From the IMG/VR virus record IMGVR_UViG_3300005663_001601: a DNA stretch of 15,905 nt. One strand, given 5' to 3'. The stretch comes from a virus. This document shows, one piece after another, positions 1,513-6,630 of this stretch (positions are counted from its first letter, which is position 1; every line of letters begins with the position of its first letter). The notes under the pieces are model-generated. The model saw nothing but the letters and a program-made list of their open reading frames with translations, did no database searches and was not told the DNA's origin. The position numbers and the translations under genes were made by a program.

Positions 1513-3036
1513 TCAATCTCCTACATCAAATTTAATACCTTGGGCCAATGGCAACTCTGTAGAATAGTTTATCGTGTTAGTAGCACGACGCATGTAGCTC
1601 TTCCAAGCATCGCTTCCGCTTTCGCGACCACCACCTGTTTCTTTTTCTCCACCAAACGCGCCTCCTATTTCTGCGCCACTTGGTCCGATGTTTACATTAG
1701 CAAGTCCACAGTCACTTGTCGATAGGAATTTTTCTGTCTCTCTAATATCGGTGCTAAAAATACAAGAACTTAATCCTTGTGGGACATCATTGTGCATTTC
1801 TAGAGCATCATCAAAATCACTGTATTTCATTACATAAAGAATAGGAGCAAATGTCTCACGTTTGACAATAGCTGACTGTTCTGGCATTTCAACAATTGCC
1901 GGCTTTACATAGTATCCATACGAAGAAAATTTATCTTCTAATACGCGCTCACCGCCAAACACAGTTCCGCCTTCATTGGCAGCTACGGATAACGAAAGCT
2001 CCATATCACCAAACGCAGATCCATCAATCAATGGACCAACTAGATTTTTTTCATCAAGCGGATTTCCGATAGAGATTGTATTGTATGCCTTCTTAAGTTT
2101 TCGCACAAGATCATCATGAATATCTTCGTGAACAATAACACGCCTTAATGTAGTGCAACGTTGTCCAGCAGTTCCAACAGCACTAAAGACGATAGCTTTA
2201 AGTGCCATATCCAAATCTGCAGATGGTGTGACTATCATACCATTATTGCCACCCAGCTCCAGAAGATAACGTCCCAGACGACTTGCAACATAGGGAGCAA
2301 TAAACTGACCCATCTGTGTGCTGCCTGTAGCACTCACGAGCTTAATTTTATCGCTTTCAGCAAGTGCGGCGCCAGCTTGCGAGCCACCGAAAACCACTTG
2401 TGACAGATTTTCAGGAACGTCATCAAACTTTTCATCAAAATTGTCCACAGCATTCAAGAATAGTTGCTGACAAGCTAACGCTGTGAGAGGAGTTTTTTCA
2501 CTTGGCTTCCAGATAACACTGTCCCCACAAACTATTGCCAACGCAAAGTTCCAAGACCAAACAGCAACAGGAAAGTTGAAAGCAGTGATAACAGCGACAG
2601 GACCTAGTGGGTGCCATGTTTCCATTAGTTTATGTCCAGGACGCTCAGAAGCAATTGTTAGACCATATAGTTGACGCGACAGTCCTACAGCAAAATCACA
2701 GATATCAATCATCTCCTGAACTTCGCCGAGTCCTTCTTGAAGAATTTTACCGTTCTCAATTGTGACAAGCTCTCCAAGTGGCTGTTTATATATACGAAGC
2801 TGTTCAGCGAAAAGTCTTATTAACTCACCACGTTGTGGACCTGGAACATTTTTCCACTCATTAAATGCTTCTGTTGACTGTTTAATAGTCGGCAACATCT
2901 CTTTTACAGAAGAGATAGTGTCTTGAACTGAACCGATCTCCGTGCCATTAATCGGAGTGTAAACGAGCCGGTTTCCTTCAAACGAAGATGGAACAACGCC
3001 CATGCTTTTTAAAAGATAATCTACTTTTTCTTTCAT
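1513..3036 (-). CDS. Aldehyde dehydrogenase of the ALDH7 (antiquitin; alpha-aminoadipic / piperideine-6-carboxylate semialdehyde dehydrogenase) type, 507 aa
   Basis: Catalytic motifs ELGGNN (general base Glu) and GQRCTT (nucleophile Cys) are present. Long stretches resemble human ALDH7A1 as I recall it: GKILQEGLGEVQEMIDICDFAVGLSR versus [26 protein letters not shown], and a C-terminus ..GAEIGGAFGGEKETGGGRESGSDAWKSYMRRATNTINYS.. that is nearly identical. Confidence 0.93.
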   Translation of the reverse strand: MKEKVDYLLKSMGVVPSSFEGNRLVYTPINGTEIGSVQDTISSVKEMLPTIKQSTEAFNEWKNVPGPQRGELIRLFAEQLRIYKQPLGELVTIENGKILQEGLGEVQEMIDICDFAVGLSRQLYGLTIASERPGHKLMETWHPLGPVAVITAFNFPVAVWSWNFALAIVCGDSVIWKPSEKTPLTALACQQLFLNAVDNFDEKFDDVPENLSQVVFGGSQAGAALAESDKIKLVSATGSTQMGQFIAPYVASRLGRYLLELGGNNGMIVTPSADLDMALKAIVFSAVGTAGQRCTTLRRVIVHEDIHDDLVRKLKKAYNTISIGNPLDEKNLVGPLIDGSAFGDMELSLSVAANEGGTVFGGERVLEDKFSSYGYYVKPAIVEMPEQSAIVKRETFAPILYVMKYSDFDDALEMHNDVPQGLSSCIFSTDIRETEKFLSTSDCGLANVNIGPSGAEIGGAFGGEKETGGGRESGSDAWKSYMRRATNTINYSTELPLAQGIKFDVGD

Positions 3037-3037
3037 A

Positions 3038-3535
3038 TTAGCTCATCCTTTTTCTGATCATCCACCAAACTGCTAATGCGCCTACCATCTTAACCAGTGT
3101 CATTATTATAACACCCTGTATAGAGAAAAATCCAATCATATATAGAAACAATGCGCTATCAATTGGGGTTGCAAGTACGCTCGATAACAATACACGTTGC
3201 GGAAATGGACGTCCCGTAAACGAATAAACACCCCAATCTGCAAACTCACTAACAAGAAATGCCGTAACGCTTGCGATAGCAATAGTTGGATCTGCTAAGA
3301 CATAGCTTAATGCACCAGCCAGCAACATTGCTAAGATAACATAATGCCCAACTTCCCTCTGAGCAAAATCGCGAAACACAAAAATCAAGCCAACTAAAAA
3401 TGTTGCACTTGGAATAACGATACCTTCTCCAAGTGGCAATATCGGCAAAACACTAAACGCATAGTTTACTATTACAATTGACGCGACATAAATTAATGTC
3501 CACCAAATTTTTAAATCTTTAAGCGTCATCTTCAT
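3038..3535 (-). CDS. Polytopic membrane protein, 165 aa, probably YhhQ/DUF165 (Vut; queuosine-precursor transporter) family
   Basis: About 5 TM segments. Motifs IFVFRDFAQREVG, ADWGVYSF.GR and SSVLATPIDSALFLYMIGFF match my recollection of E. coli YhhQ (IFLATDLTVRIFG, LDVHVFNRLR, STLFGNVSDTLAFFFIAF). Shorter than the roughly 220-aa typical member. Confidence 0.5.
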   Translation of the reverse strand: MKMTLKDLKIWWTLIYVASIVIVNYAFSVLPILPLGEGIVIPSATFLVGLIFVFRDFAQREVGHYVILAMLLAGALSYVLADPTIAIASVTAFLVSEFADWGVYSFTGRPFPQRVLLSSVLATPIDSALFLYMIGFFSIQGVIIMTLVKMVGALAVWWMIRKRMS

Positions 3536-3831: not shown

Positions 3832-4140
3832 TCAACATTCTATTTGTTCGAATAGAAGTTTACCCTCATTTTTTCGTGCTTGATATTTTCTTTTCTTCCA
3901 AAGTCGTTGTTCATTTTGAAACCATTCTTTTGCTAGTTCTTGGGCTTGATCTAGTGGAGAAAGAGTTTCATGGCCATCAGAAACATAAAGATGCGGTTCT
4001 CCGCACTGTACACAGATACCGCCAGTTAGCCAATATTCAAGCTGATTAAAAATATGACCCCATTGTCTTCGCGCATGAACGTCATGATGTCCATGCTTAC
4101 ATTTCCATTCTTGTAACTCAGAAGCAACCTGATCAAACAT
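3832..4140 (-). CDS. Hypothetical Cys/His-rich protein, 102 aa, possible metal binding
   Basis: KCKHGHHDVH and ICVQCG clusters. Basic C-terminal tail KKRKYQARK. Confidence 0.45.
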   Translation of the reverse strand: MFDQVASELQEWKCKHGHHDVHARRQWGHIFNQLEYWLTGGICVQCGEPHLYVSDGHETLSPLDQAQELAKEWFQNEQRLWKKRKYQARKNEGKLLFEQIEC

Positions 4141-4157
4141 ATCAGCCTCCTTATAAG

Positions 4158-4451
4158 TTATTCGAGCCAGCCCATTTCTTTTAGAAAATCACATTCCGTA
4201 CACAGTTTTGGAACAGCACATGTAAAACTTTCAGGCAATACAATTGCCCCATCGCATATTTTACAATAAAAATACATAGGCGAACCAGCATAAAGAGAAC
4301 TATTATCAATCTTCTCTGGCGGATTTGCTTGGCGCTCTTGTAAGGCGATCAGTGCTTTCTCCTTTTCGGACATCGGCACGGCGACGATTTTCTGTCTCTC
4401 TTCTGAAGCGACTAATGCTTTTCCTTTTTTTGTTAAGCTAGATTTACTCAT
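4158..4451 (-). CDS. Hypothetical protein with a C-terminal zinc ribbon, 97 aa
   Basis: C-terminus YCKICDG..(14)..CAVPKLCTECDF has a CxxC...C..CxxC arrangement. The N-terminus is charged and coiled-coil-like. Confidence 0.45.
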   Translation of the reverse strand: MSKSSLTKKGKALVASEERQKIVAVPMSEKEKALIALQERQANPPEKIDNSSLYAGSPMYFYCKICDGAIVLPESFTCAVPKLCTECDFLKEMGWLE

Positions 4452-4452
4452 T

Positions 4453-4692
4453 TTACCACTCCCAAAATGCTTTGCCTAGTTTGTTAACTTTTTTACTAAA
4501 AGCATTTTCTTGTAATAATGTAAACATAACAGTTATCATAGCGACTAGATAAAAAATCAACCAAGCTGCGGCGCCACTTGAACCAACCATAATGTAAATA
4601 GAGCCCGCGGGCCAAAATGCTAAAGAAACCATAGCAAATAATAACGTCACTTTCACAATAGCCTTGATCATATTTTTAAACAATGTAAACAC
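4453..4692 (-). CDS. Small membrane protein, 79 aa
   Basis: Two hydrophobic helices. Its stop is 1 nt from the upstream start. Confidence 0.4.
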   Translation of the reverse strand: MFTLFKNMIKAIVKVTLLFAMVSLAFWPAGSIYIMVGSSGAAAWLIFYLVAMITVMFTLLQENAFSKKVNKLGKAFWEW

Positions 4693-4701
4693 TTCTTTCT
4701 C

Positions 4702-5535
4702 CTACTTTTCAAAAGCAGCTACGTATTCGCCTCTAGTTTGACCACAAGCTGCACCAGTATTAGCTCCATCAGACGCATGATATTCAACAGTATAACCATC
4801 TTTCGTCAAAATGTCAACGAACTCCTGTATCCTATTGCTACCAGTAAATGTCACACCAGAAACCAGATTGAATCGACCAAACTTAAGATACCAGCTTGTA
4901 TCCAAGTATTTCTTGATCAGTTCCAGATCCTCATCGCGGTCATTAATCCCATCCATAAGAGCAAAATTAAGCTCAATGGATCTGTTGGGTTGATTCTTTC
5001 TATAAGTTTCCATTGCAGCGATAACTTCTTCAATTGGACTAGCTAATGGCATTAACTCTTTCCTTATCACTGAATCTAAGCTATGCATCGACACTTGTAG
5101 CTTGAAAGGAACATCAAACTCTTCCCTGGAAAGGTCAACAATTCTTTTTGGTGCTGCGCCCGATGTTGACAGTGCCAATCGACAGTTAGGATAATATGAC
5201 GGAAGCAACTGCATTGCTGTGACAACGTTGCTATAGTTTAGTAGAGGTTCGCCTTCGCCCATAAAAGAGAACAAGATAACCTTGCCTTCTACAAGATTAT
5301 CTTCCAACATTTCGTGACACTGGTGTAGCATCTCTCCATACGTTAGGTTCACTGTTTTCTCTGGTCCTGGACTGGCGCAGAAAGTACATCCTACAGCACA
5401 GCTTAATTGTGTTGAAAAGCATACCACTTGTTTTTCGGGTCGGTTAAAATAGATAGCTTCGGCGTGTTTGTCTCCTAAATCAACCAGTACCTTTTGTACT
5501 CGCGCTTGCCCCATTGGTATAAGTTGTTCTGTCAT
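4702..5535 (-). CDS. Radical-SAM RNA methyltransferase of the RlmN/Cfr family, compact form of 277 aa lacking the N-terminal domain
   Basis: CAVGCTFC (CxxxCxxC) is preceded by VVCFSTQ (cf. RlmN LCVSSQ with Cys118). FMGEGEPLLN matches RlmN MGMGEPLLN. LALSTSG matches VTLSTSG. The C-terminal GAACGQT matches RlmN/Cfr DIDAACGQL, which carries the second mechanistic Cys. Collinear similarity runs through the whole core. Confidence 0.85.
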   Translation of the reverse strand: MTEQLIPMGQARVQKVLVDLGDKHAEAIYFNRPEKQVVCFSTQLSCAVGCTFCASPGPEKTVNLTYGEMLHQCHEMLEDNLVEGKVILFSFMGEGEPLLNYSNVVTAMQLLPSYYPNCRLALSTSGAAPKRIVDLSREEFDVPFKLQVSMHSLDSVIRKELMPLASPIEEVIAAMETYRKNQPNRSIELNFALMDGINDRDEDLELIKKYLDTSWYLKFGRFNLVSGVTFTGSNRIQEFVDILTKDGYTVEYHASDGANTGAACGQTRGEYVAAFEK

Positions 5536-5698
5536 TTTTTTGCTCCTCGTATATAAACTTTTTGCTACAATAAAAACAAATGCTATAATTTCTACCTGTG
5601 TCGGGTATCAAGTAGTAAACGATTGGGTGATCGTGTGGCGCGTCAGGTCCAGTACATACTACATATTTTGAATGGACAATAACGATCTCTTTCTCCAC
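5480..5698 (-). CDS. zf-CHCC zinc-finger protein (NDUFS6 C-terminal-domain-like), 72 aa
   Basis: VVCTGPDAPHDHPIVYYLIPDTGRNYSICFYCSKKF fits the C-x8-HP-VY..L...C-x-YC..F pattern of the NDUFS6 zinc-finger domain (cf. [35 protein letters not shown]). Its 3' end overlaps the RlmN-like start by about 56 nt in another frame. Confidence 0.6.
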   Translation of the reverse strand: MEKEIVIVHSKYVVCTGPDAPHDHPIVYYLIPDTGRNYSICFYCSKKFIYEEQKNDRTTYTNGASASTKGTG

Positions 5699-5728
5699 TA
5701 TTTTTTTATCCTAATATTACATTTCATC

Positions 5729-5742
5729 CCATTGACCAATGG
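5729..5742. promoter_or_regulatory. 14-bp perfect palindrome CCATTGACCAATGG between tRNA-Leu and the zf-CHCC gene; possible operator or -35-containing promoter element
   Basis: CCATTG-AC-CAATGG read directly from the sequence. On the minus strand, TTGGTCA followed about 16-17 nt later by TATTAG resembles sigma70 -35/-10 elements upstream of the zf-CHCC ATG. Confidence 0.25.
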
Positions 5743-5783
5743 AAATAATGTTGTAAATCTGTCATATTTTTGCTCCTTATATT

Positions 5784-5867
5784 TGGTGCCCGTAGAGGGA
5801 GTCGAACCCCCACTCCCGAAGGAACTGGATCTTGAATCCAGCGTGGCTACCGTTTCACCATACGGGC
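5784..5867 (-). tRNA. tRNA-Leu (anticodon CAA), type II with a long variable arm, encoded CCA
   Basis: Reverse complement GCCCGTATGGTGAAACGGTAGCCACGCTGGATTCAAGATCCAGTTCCTTCGGGAGTGGGGGTTCGACTCCCTCTACGGGCACCA. Perfect 7-bp acceptor stem and a 3-bp D stem. Anticodon stem CTGGA/TCCAG with loop UUCAAGA. Variable arm TCC-TTCG-GGA and T arm GGGGG-TTCGACT-CCCTC. The 5' end is 1 nt from the histidine-kinase stop codon. Confidence 0.9.
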
Positions 5868-5868
5868 T

Positions 5869-6630
5869 TTATTTTGCTTTCGGCAACGTTAGAGTAACAG
5901 TCGTTCCAACTCCTAATTCGCTTACGACATCAATATTGCCGCCCATAAGTTCTGCTAGCTCTACAGATAACGGCAATCCTAAACCTGTGCCCTCATATTG
6001 TCGACCCAATCCAGCACCTACTTGCCCGAATTTTAACAGAGCAGACTTCACTCCGTCTTCGTCCATGCCTATTCCATCATCTTCAATGACAATAATTACA
6101 TTATCACCAACAAGGCATTTGATATCAATGTTGCCATTCACATCAGTAAACTTAACAGAATTCGACAGTAAATTCAATATAATTTGTTTTAACCGAATCG
6201 GATCAGCATATACATATAGATCATCACAACTTGTCTTAACTTCAACATTGATTGACTTTTCTTGTGCTCTTTCAGCGATAAGTGTGATACAGTCTTTAAA
6301 GACCGAACACATACTAATTTTTTCTGGATGGATTTCAGTCTTACCAGCCTCAATTTTTGAGAGATCAAGAATATCGTTGATTAACTTGAGCAAGTGATGA
6401 CCACTTTCAAAAATGTCATTGGCATATGCTTTATGTTTATCGGACAATTCTCCGCCTATTCCGCTCGTCATAATTTCAGAGAAGCCAATGATAGCATTTA
6501 ACGGCGTTCTAAGCTCATGACTCATATTGGCTAGGAATTCAGATTTGGACTTATTCTCGGCCACTGCAATATTTTTAGTCTCTTCGTGTTCGCTAACCAA
6601 GGTCATTAGTTCTTCAATTGTGCGATCCAT
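5869..6630 (-). CDS. Histidine kinase with HisKA and HATPase_c domains only (no sensor, no receiver), 253 aa
   Basis: H-box MSHELRTPLN, N-box LLSNSVKFT, G1 IEDDGIGM, G2 GTGLGLPLS. Only about 35 residues precede the H-box. Confidence 0.85.
   Translation of the reverse strand: MDRTIEELMTLVSEHEETKNIAVAENKSKSEFLANMSHELRTPLNAIIGFSEIMTSGIGGELSDKHKAYANDIFESGHHLLKLINDILDLSKIEAGKTEIHPEKISMCSVFKDCITLIAERAQEKSINVEVKTSCDDLYVYADPIRLKQIILNLLSNSVKFTDVNGNIDIKCLVGDNVIIVIEDDGIGMDEDGVKSALLKFGQVGAGLGRQYEGTGLGLPLSVELAELMGGNIDVVSELGVGTTVTLTLPKAK

Follow-up and report, generated by a model that had tools for sequence, protein, structure and literature searches.

The DNA analysed here, referred to as the window, is a stretch of 15,905 nucleotides from a virus (IMG/VR virus record IMGVR_UViG_3300005663_001601) in which all genes are located on one strand, two tRNA genes among them. 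At 4702..5535 it carries a gene for a protein of 277 amino acids (aa), which is predicted from sequence comparison and structure modelling to be a class A radical S-adenosylmethionine (SAM) methylase of the RlmN/Cfr type (COG0820) and which lacks the N-terminal domain of these enzymes. New here are the broad lineage of short forms to which the methylase belongs, the sharing of this lineage between large phages and Parcubacteria-type bacteria, and an RNA-contact surface that is remodelled in comparison with both RlmN and Cfr. The gene and its catalytic elements are the following (Ec, residue numbering of E. coli RlmN):

4702..5535, minus strand: coding sequence of the methylase, 277 aa, ATG start, an RlmN-like class A radical-SAM protein without N-terminal HhH2 domain
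5543..5548, minus strand: Shine-Dalgarno sequence GAGGAG, read off the sequence, with a spacer of 7 nucleotides (nt) to the ATG at 5535
5415..5499, minus strand: beta-sheet extension (residues 13-40), which joins the radical-SAM core, from the strands of an AlphaFold2 (AF2) model and invariant residues
Within the beta-extension, minus strand: key residues K15 (Ec K94), E26 (Ec E105) and the resolving Cys39 (codon 5419-5421)
5377..5400, minus strand: [4Fe-4S] motif C46-x3-C50-x2-C53 (CAVGCTFC), aligning with E. coli C125/C129/C132
4738..4752, minus strand: C-terminal AACGQ with the methyl-carrying Cys264 (codon 4744-4746), aligning with E. coli C355 and Cfr C338

In Pfam scans the sole match of the methylase was Radical_SAM (1e-10), whereas the top model in NCBIfam was TIGR00048 RlmN (5e-41, 140.8 bits, equivalog cut-off 290). 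A second RlmN model, PRK11194, gave 101.3 bits against a cut-off of 633, and the Cfr models TIGR04432, NF000424 and PRK14453 gave 81-82 bits against cut-offs of 468-550, all of which lie below the respective threshold. In the PHROGs only a weak match to a generic Fe-S family was obtained. When solved structures were compared by sequence, RlmN was best, with 9e-30 for 6fz6 and 5e-25 for E. coli RlmN, followed by Cfr with 9e-18; this alignment spans residues 17-272 of the methylase and begins at E. coli residue 96 in the numbering of the His-tagged PDB entry (about 76 in native numbering). The identity to E. coli RlmN amounts to 26%. Structure prediction, which the preliminary description had proposed as a check, was done with AF2 on the family alignment of 43 relatives (33-87% identity). 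The model (predicted local distance difference test score, pLDDT, 93.6; predicted template modelling score, pTM, 0.90) has an RlmN-type fold with a three-strand beta-extension (13-19, 23-31, 36-40), the radical-SAM core and a C-terminal segment. In a Foldseek search against the PDB the ten best matches were all RlmN (query-normalised template modelling score, TMq, 0.73-0.81), with 0.78-0.81 for 6fz6, 5hr7 and 3rfa, and the next family was NifB at about 0.5. Sequence, profiles, predicted structure and phylogeny therefore all agree with the RlmN/Cfr-type identity proposed earlier.

The catalytic set of the methylase is complete, including the STSG, SxH and GxGEP motifs and R158. In the alignment Cys39, part of VVCFSTQ, falls on E. 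coli C118 and Cfr C105, and Cys264, part of AACGQ, on C355 and C338. Both cysteines, as well as K15 and E26, are invariant in every group compared, and the cluster cysteines C46, C50 and C53 are invariant in 147 of 147 sequences. Within the 43 relatives E26, K35, C39, C46, G49, C50, F52, C53, MGxGEP, N100, S123-T124, K145-L-Q147, S149, H151 and R158 are invariant and AACGQ is nearly so, while K15, E26, C39, C46/50/53, F52, GxGEP, N100, S123-T124, S149, H151, R158, N198 and C264-G-Q are common to the family, canonical RlmN and Cfr. The conservation of the CxxxCxxC cluster and of both mechanistic cysteines, read from the single sequence before, is thus borne out by the alignment; no mechanistic cysteine is lost and no other subfamily gives better homology than RlmN. 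By sequence, profile and fold the closest known system is RlmN (E. coli YfgB, 3RFA and 5HR7; Sphaerobacter thermophilus, 6FZ6), which makes 2-methyladenosine (m2A) at position 2503 of 23S rRNA and at position 37 of tRNA. Both have the beta-extension, the core and the C-terminal segment, and the cluster cysteines, the equivalents of C118/C355, E105 and K94 and the SAM-binding motifs are identical. Unlike RlmN, the methylase is phage-encoded, acidic and lacks about 79 N-terminal residues.

Compared with its syntenic homolog on the metagenomic contig L001 (82% aa identity), the gene shows a ratio of non-synonymous to synonymous substitution rates (dN/dS) of 0.08 at a dS of 1.36. The methylase gene is intact and under purifying selection, and a pseudogene or decay is ruled out by this ratio together with the invariant catalytic residues. 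A scan for promoters and terminators gave nothing exceeding the shuffled background.

Against the 384 aa of E. coli RlmN the methylase is short by 107 aa. Some 79 of these are missing at the N-terminus, where K15 of the methylase aligns with E. coli K94. The domain PF21016 (RlmN_N), which was detected in E. coli RlmN as a positive control (residues 18-77, 4e-32), had no match in the methylase or in any of the 31 open reading frames (ORFs) of the window in Pfam scans at E<=0.1 (E<=0.01 for 18 of the 31). To look for a split N-terminal domain, the N-terminal regions of 39 canonical enzymes were used as tblastn queries, and the window and its relatives returned noise only (best E 0.078). Upstream, the frame of the methylase is closed by a stop 25 codons before the ATG, without any ATG, GTG or TTG between, and the start is overlapped by 56 nt, in another frame, by a further ORF:

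5480..5698, minus strand: zf-CHCC ORF, 72 aa (PF10276, 29.8 bits, cut-off 27)

The preliminary description had stated that the protein is about 100 aa shorter than RlmN, lacks the N-terminal RNA-binding domain and has no room for it upstream, and all of this was confirmed. In Cfr, a cryo-EM preprint shows the N-terminal HhH2 domain anchored on the junction of helices H90-H92 and on the backbone of H91 (PMC13001441). The 87-mer rRNA in this complex imitates the L-shape of tRNA, and the preprint equates H91 with the acceptor stem of the RlmN-bound tRNA and H92 with its D-arm (PMC13001441). In the published superposition the site of the HhH2 domain thus matches the acceptor/D-arm corner of this tRNA. 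The HhH2 domain is missing here and the phage enzyme is therefore without the element that reads the shape of the RNA.

The truncation, however, is not confined to this element but defines a whole lineage with more than 100 short-form representatives at 50% identity. In a search of 5.8 billion proteins 44 clusters of 239-301 aa (one of them a partial of 177 aa) without PF21016 scored 153-623 bits, and a gap separates this short family (at least 153 bits) from canonical RlmN of 340-400 aa (at most 108 bits). In a profile search of 1.84 billion representatives, short forms made up the majority of the 150 top-ranking clusters, formed at 50% identity. Among the matches listed for species-representative genomes only full-length RlmN was present, with at most 35% identity, and among the papers searched none discussed RlmN homologs without the domain or RlmN of phages. 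The loss of the domain is thus an uncharacterised trait of a lineage.

In unrooted neighbour-joining trees with 100 bootstraps the short-form family is supported by 99%, the phage subclade of 36 sequences by 100% and the union of this subclade with a sister set of 63 short proteins by 95%. Canonical RlmN and Cfr group together with 90-98%, and Cfr and Cfr(D) fall outside the short-form family. The members of the sister subclade have 258-296 aa and no N-terminal domain and are 36-40% identical to the methylase; one of them, P0040 from the metagenome-assembled genome GCA_021843285.1, is 39-42% identical to canonical RlmN. Genomic contexts were looked at for five of the sister set, of which three are plainly chromosomal: mraZ-rsmH-ftsL-ftsI-murE ... 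rlmN-short-gyrB-secE-nusG-L11 in L004, the first part of the same order as far as gyrB in L172, and adk-peptidase-rlmN-short-map in L171. The GyrB encoded on L004 shows 82-87% identity to its counterparts in Candidatus Paceibacterota, Jorgensenbacteria and Parcubacteria. Because of these contexts and this identity, the data suggest that some sister genes encode a working housekeeping enzyme without N-terminal domain in Parcubacteria-type bacteria. The remaining two contexts are unclear or island-like, and one adjoins an integrase. In this locus (L174) a 713-aa protein with radical-SAM and His_Phos_1 domains (3850-5991) lies directly upstream of the short gene, a setting that looks like a mobile island.

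A second group of short proteins was found among viruses: most RlmN-like genes on IMG/VR contigs have just 45-60 residues before the cluster motif, and this group is separated with 100% bootstrap from the family of the methylase and from canonical RlmN. It is common in jumbo phages, cultured ones included. Equally short are the proteins of Stenotrophomonas phage ANB28 (319 aa, annotated as RlmN and located within a tRNA cluster) and Salmonella phage Arash (gp133c, 309 aa), which gave no match in a PF21016 scan. Further short phage examples are B3FJU2 of Pseudomonas jumbo phage 201phi2-1 (302 aa), A0A6J5RTK8 of an uncultured Caudovirales phage (284 aa, 'COG0820') and a protein of LR756500; for A0A6J5RTK8 and B3FJU2 the absence of PF21016 is inferred from their lengths of 284 and 302 aa. 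Like the methylase, these proteins, all from large phages and sometimes within tRNA clusters, have about 45-60 residues before the cluster motif and keep both mechanistic cysteines, and none is characterised. Most of them, however, belong to the separate group, with 18-30% identity to the methylase and a different pocket (e.g., Y/R/V/Q/M/G/T/R/F/A at the contact positions). Both phage groups share Q147, N190 and V37 and yet separate in the tree, and the N-terminal domain may have been lost once or twice.

The short-form clade of the methylase, which is common to large phages and Parcubacteria-type bacteria, is characterised by about 45-60 residues before the cluster motif, the lack of PF21016, monophyly and invariant K35, L88, S90, K145, Q147, K218 and E251, and all of these were found for the methylase. 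The Parcubacteria-type forms (Patescibacteria, candidate phyla radiation) share these seven pocket residues, but at the positions of R32, H253 and D256 of the phage clade they carry H/Y, Y and N, and their isoelectric points (pI) lie in the neutral to basic range. In rare proteins the short core is joined to other domains, namely P0437 (759 aa, with HD and HD_assoc, dGTPase-like) and P0428 (398 aa, with a pentapeptide repeat), which are possibly errors of gene calling; as two cases without consistent pattern they were dismissed as a functional clue.

The RNA-contact surface was analysed by mapping 23 RNA-contacting residues of Cfr (list from PMC13001441) onto the alignment. At only three of the 23 positions is the methylase identical to Cfr or E. 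coli RlmN, compared with an overall identity of 26%. Ten of them, R32, K35, L88, S90, K145, Q147, K218, E251, H253 and D256, are invariant in the 36 sequences of the phage subclade. In terms of the canonical contact residues the changes are R114K, T116V, N172L, V174S, R206C, A231Q, T276E, N307K, R344H and R347D. Among those lost are residues fixed in canonical enzymes, such as Ec R344 and N307 with their contacts to the target nucleotide and R206 with its contact to the stem. N208 and T210 of Cfr, which read the base 3' of the target, correspond to K145 and Q147. Because contact residues are replaced and yet invariant within the phage subclade, this pattern points to a conserved but different mode of RNA binding and not to decay. 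For Cfr, mutagenesis has shown that the pocket residues Y97, W101, S103, S151, Q329 and F330 are needed for resistance or C8 methylation, and Q329 is experimentally tied to the C8 specificity (PMC12887959). The methylase has R32, K35, V37, L88, S255 and D256 at these six positions. At the position of Q329 the methylase has Ser and its family either Thr or Ser, which agrees with RlmN and would be a weak pointer to C2. S90, on the other hand, equals S153 of Cfr, where canonical RlmN has an invariant Val.

The element that carries this gene is a large uncultured phage. Two syntenic metagenomic contigs, L001 (40 kb) and L169 (142 kb), contain Phage_30_3 and NUMOD3 domains, tRNAs and long arrays of small ORFs on one strand. 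Less closely related members of the family were located on viral contigs of IMG/VR (57-115 kb) and on one contig of 289 kb (L002), in which aminoacyl-tRNA synthetase genes and 22 tRNAs surround the homolog of the methylase. The window further encodes an 858-aa protein resembling the major vault protein (9846-12422, minus strand), with Vault_3 and MVP_shoulder domains; its full-length relatives in the phage collection are confined to the huge phages LR756500/01/03 of 462-735 kb (39-40% identity), and no PHROG or PADLOC model matched it. An aldehyde dehydrogenase of the window is 55% identical to one in the huge phage LR756504. No cultured phage is close in DNA sequence, as the window had no megablast match in the phage collection over its whole length. 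The phage origin suspected in the preliminary description is thus upheld by syntenic contigs of up to 142 kb with phage domains, by the IMG/VR relatives and by genes common to huge phages.

From the conserved residues and the context we infer that the protein is probably an active adenine C-methylase, for which C2 of adenosine 37 in tRNA anticodon loops would be the favoured target and A2503 of 23S rRNA the second choice; we hold this reading with somewhat more confidence than doubt. Because the catalytic residues are conserved and the mechanism of RlmN and Cfr is established, the chemistry would use two SAM molecules and two cysteines. One SAM would methylate Cys264, and a second, bound to the [4Fe-4S] cluster of C46/C50/C53, would be cleaved to a 5'-deoxyadenosyl radical. 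This radical would take a hydrogen from the Cys-bound methyl group, and the resulting radical would add to a carbon of the RNA adenine, giving a protein-RNA crosslink that Cys39 would resolve to release the C-methyl adenine. As the HhH2 domain is missing and most loop-contacting side chains are replaced by family-invariant ones, the enzyme would probably grip only the loop or U-turn and the adjoining stem. The substrates would be phage and/or host tRNAs made during infection. tRNA is favoured over rRNA because large phages make new tRNAs during infection, whereas enzymes of the RlmN type need naked rRNA, and carbon 2 is favoured because the residue equivalent to Q329 is RlmN-like. Naked 23S rRNA serves both RlmN and Cfr as substrate (PMC13001441).

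Several points weigh against this explanation of the enzyme. Cfr's N-terminal domain is described as crucial for rRNA binding (PMC13001441), and the mutations R25A and Q28A in this domain reduce resistance (PMC2836569). E. coli RlmN requires U38 and leaves an anticodon stem-loop unmethylated when this is offered in isolation (PMC5130265), and because of the latter the domain-less enzyme might need a partner or a different substrate. No conserved partner was found: when the 31 window proteins were searched by tblastn against 88 viral loci, homologs were present only in L001, L169 and L170. The pocket is unlike that of both RlmN and Cfr, so that C2 versus C8 is unreadable from the sequence, and the trees that define the lineage are of the neighbour-joining type only. 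With a pI of 5.0 and a net charge of -11 the methylase is also unusual for a stand-alone RNA binder. The median pI is 5.3 in the phage clade, 5.8 in the other short viral group, 7.8 in the Parcubacteria-type forms (range 7.5-9.1) and 8.9 in canonical RlmN, but E. coli RlmN has a pI of 6.6 and Cfr one of 7.0, and a basic pI is therefore not obligatory.

The neighbouring tRNA genes give no help either. The gene beside the methylase is:

5784..5867, minus strand: tRNA-Leu(CAA), predicted by ARAGORN, with encoded CCA and the anticodon loop UUCAAGA, in which position 37 is G

This gene lies 250 nt upstream of the methylase and is conserved in place in L001. In L169 (9628-9819) and L170 (6570-6761) the public gene calls put a 63-aa ORF over its equivalent, which is probably a spurious call. 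The second tRNA of the window, Met(CAU), has A37-A38 after U36. A37 following U36 is the context normally taken by N6-threonylcarbamoyladenosine (t6A). Among 63 non-redundant viral loci a tRNA was present within 10 kb of the methylase-family gene in 20 and within 1 kb in 5, and over distances from 0 to 8 kb the tRNA density stays level (0.08-0.10 per kb). tRNA genes are thus not enriched beside the gene and the adjacent tRNA-Leu has G37, so that the hint at the substrate that had been seen in the tRNA adjacency does not hold. The adjacency is limited to this phage lineage (window, L001 and probably L169/L170) and is uninformative on the substrate. In L002 the gene sits within the cluster of 22 tRNAs, most of them with A37; such placement within tRNA clusters, also seen in L037 and ANB28, would fit a tRNA role without being evidence for one.

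Other explanations have to be weighed against a preference for A37. An enzyme with the same dual task as housekeeping RlmN, m2A2503 in 23S rRNA and m2A37 in classical tRNAs, might supplement or replace that of the host. The entire catalytic apparatus is conserved, sister genes on Parcubacteria-type contigs have genes for translation and cell division around them, the cellular short form P0040 has the above identity of 39-42% to canonical RlmN, and JGI as well as one phage record annotate such proteins as RlmN. Nevertheless we consider this unlikely: the residues with which E. coli RlmN contacts the target and its 3' neighbour (T116, N172, T209, A231, T276, N307, R344 and R347) are replaced, the Arg with which canonical enzymes bind the stem (Ec R206, Cfr R184) is missing, the score is half of the RlmN equivalog cut-off, and the rRNA made in lytic infection is a doubtful target. 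A role like that of Cfr, in which 8-methyladenosine (m8A) at 2503 would shield translation from antibiotics of the peptidyl-transferase centre during infection, is highly improbable. Cfr and Cfr(D) (plasmid-borne m8A2503 enzymes that confer resistance to phenicols, lincosamides, oxazolidinones, pleuromutilins and streptogramin A, PhLOPSA; 9P0P) do share with the methylase the superfamily and class A, the fold, both mechanistic cysteines, a mobile setting and the Ser at Cfr position 153 in place of the invariant Val of canonical RlmN. But the Cfr profiles reach 81 bits compared to 141 for RlmN and lie far below their own cut-offs, Cfr groups with canonical RlmN apart from the methylase family, and in place of Y97, W101, S103, S151, Q329 and F330 the methylase has R, K, V, L, S and D. 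The N-terminal domain with which Cfr is anchored on H91 and the junction of the rRNA is absent as well. The Cfr-like activity considered in the preliminary description thus found no specific support, given the lower scores, the separate grouping and the Ser at the position of Q329.

It is also conceivable, although we regard it as quite unlikely, that the enzyme modifies an adenine in another site or class of RNA, perhaps together with a partner protein; examples would be another tRNA or rRNA loop, transfer-messenger RNA (tmRNA), a phage RNA or a site whose modification blocks tRNA- or rRNA-cleaving defence nucleases of the host. This would agree with the loss of the shape-reading domain, the replacement of loop contacts by family-invariant residues, the changed readers of the 3' neighbour (K145 and Q147 for Cfr N208 and T210), the acidic surface and the persistence of two separate short groups in many large phages. 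However, the data point to no particular alternative target, neither a conserved partner gene nor a match to known defence or anti-defence families was found (the methylase itself was searched against those of PADLOC), and the housekeeping placement of the Parcubacteria-type genes fits a universal target better. More broadly, the domain-less clade might constitute a third functional type beside RlmN and Cfr, acting on another RNA site or context with its rebuilt pocket and used by phages to retune or shield translation; anticodon loops, for example, may be made refractory to anticodon nucleases of the host. We put this forward only as a speculative proposal with little probability. A role in DNA modification was discarded as unlikely, as every methyl group added in this way comes at a high cost and a housekeeping context was seen for the sister genes.

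To our knowledge, no class A radical-SAM methylase other than RlmN and Cfr has been characterised. In both RNA-bound structures the N-terminal domain is described as contributing to the hold on an L-shaped RNA. A large natural lineage without this domain and with a rebuilt pocket offers a minimal scaffold for asking what sets the specificity for the RNA and for C2 or C8. Huge phages are already known to carry many translation genes, and they may contain here an unrecognised RNA modification; the Parcubacteria-type members provide a clue to the modification of translation RNAs in these ultra-small bacteria. If the enzyme did write m8A2503, it would represent a phage-borne reservoir of multidrug resistance, but the evidence argues against this.

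Concerning the neighbouring genes, the zf-CHCC ORF overlaps the methylase start with a tail of 15 aa in the window, L169 and L170. In L001 its homolog (11322-11495) is tail-less with 57 aa and 65% identity and lies downstream of the methylase gene, and no homolog was found by tblastn in the more distant family loci. The zf-CHCC gene has thus moved within the locus and is not a fixed partner of the methylase. In the near-identical relatives L169 (4865-6638) and L170 (1807-3580), genes for a glutaredoxin and for SufBD, an Fe-S cluster assembly protein, are located 3-5 kb upstream of the methylase gene; this insert is absent from the window (gap between 8819 and 8747-9133) and from L001. It could represent a phage-supplied Fe-S assembly factor serving the radical-SAM enzyme.

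At 3038-3535 (minus strand), 1.2 kb downstream of the methylase, a membrane protein of 165 aa is encoded, with a weak match to Vut_1, the YhhQ-type family of queuosine-precursor transporters (24 bits, below the cut-off of 27.2). It may provide another function related to nucleoside modification. The window also contains an unusual assortment of genes of cellular type, all on the minus strand: a sensor-less histidine kinase with HisKA and HATPase_c (5869-6630, 253 aa), an Hsp20 (6772-7209), the above-mentioned aldehyde dehydrogenase (1513-3036, 507 aa) and a DHO_dh-like protein (7811-8539). The last gene of this assortment encodes an ATP-binding cassette (ABC) ATPase (14448-15347, minus strand), which matches the PADLOC models mad3/mad8.

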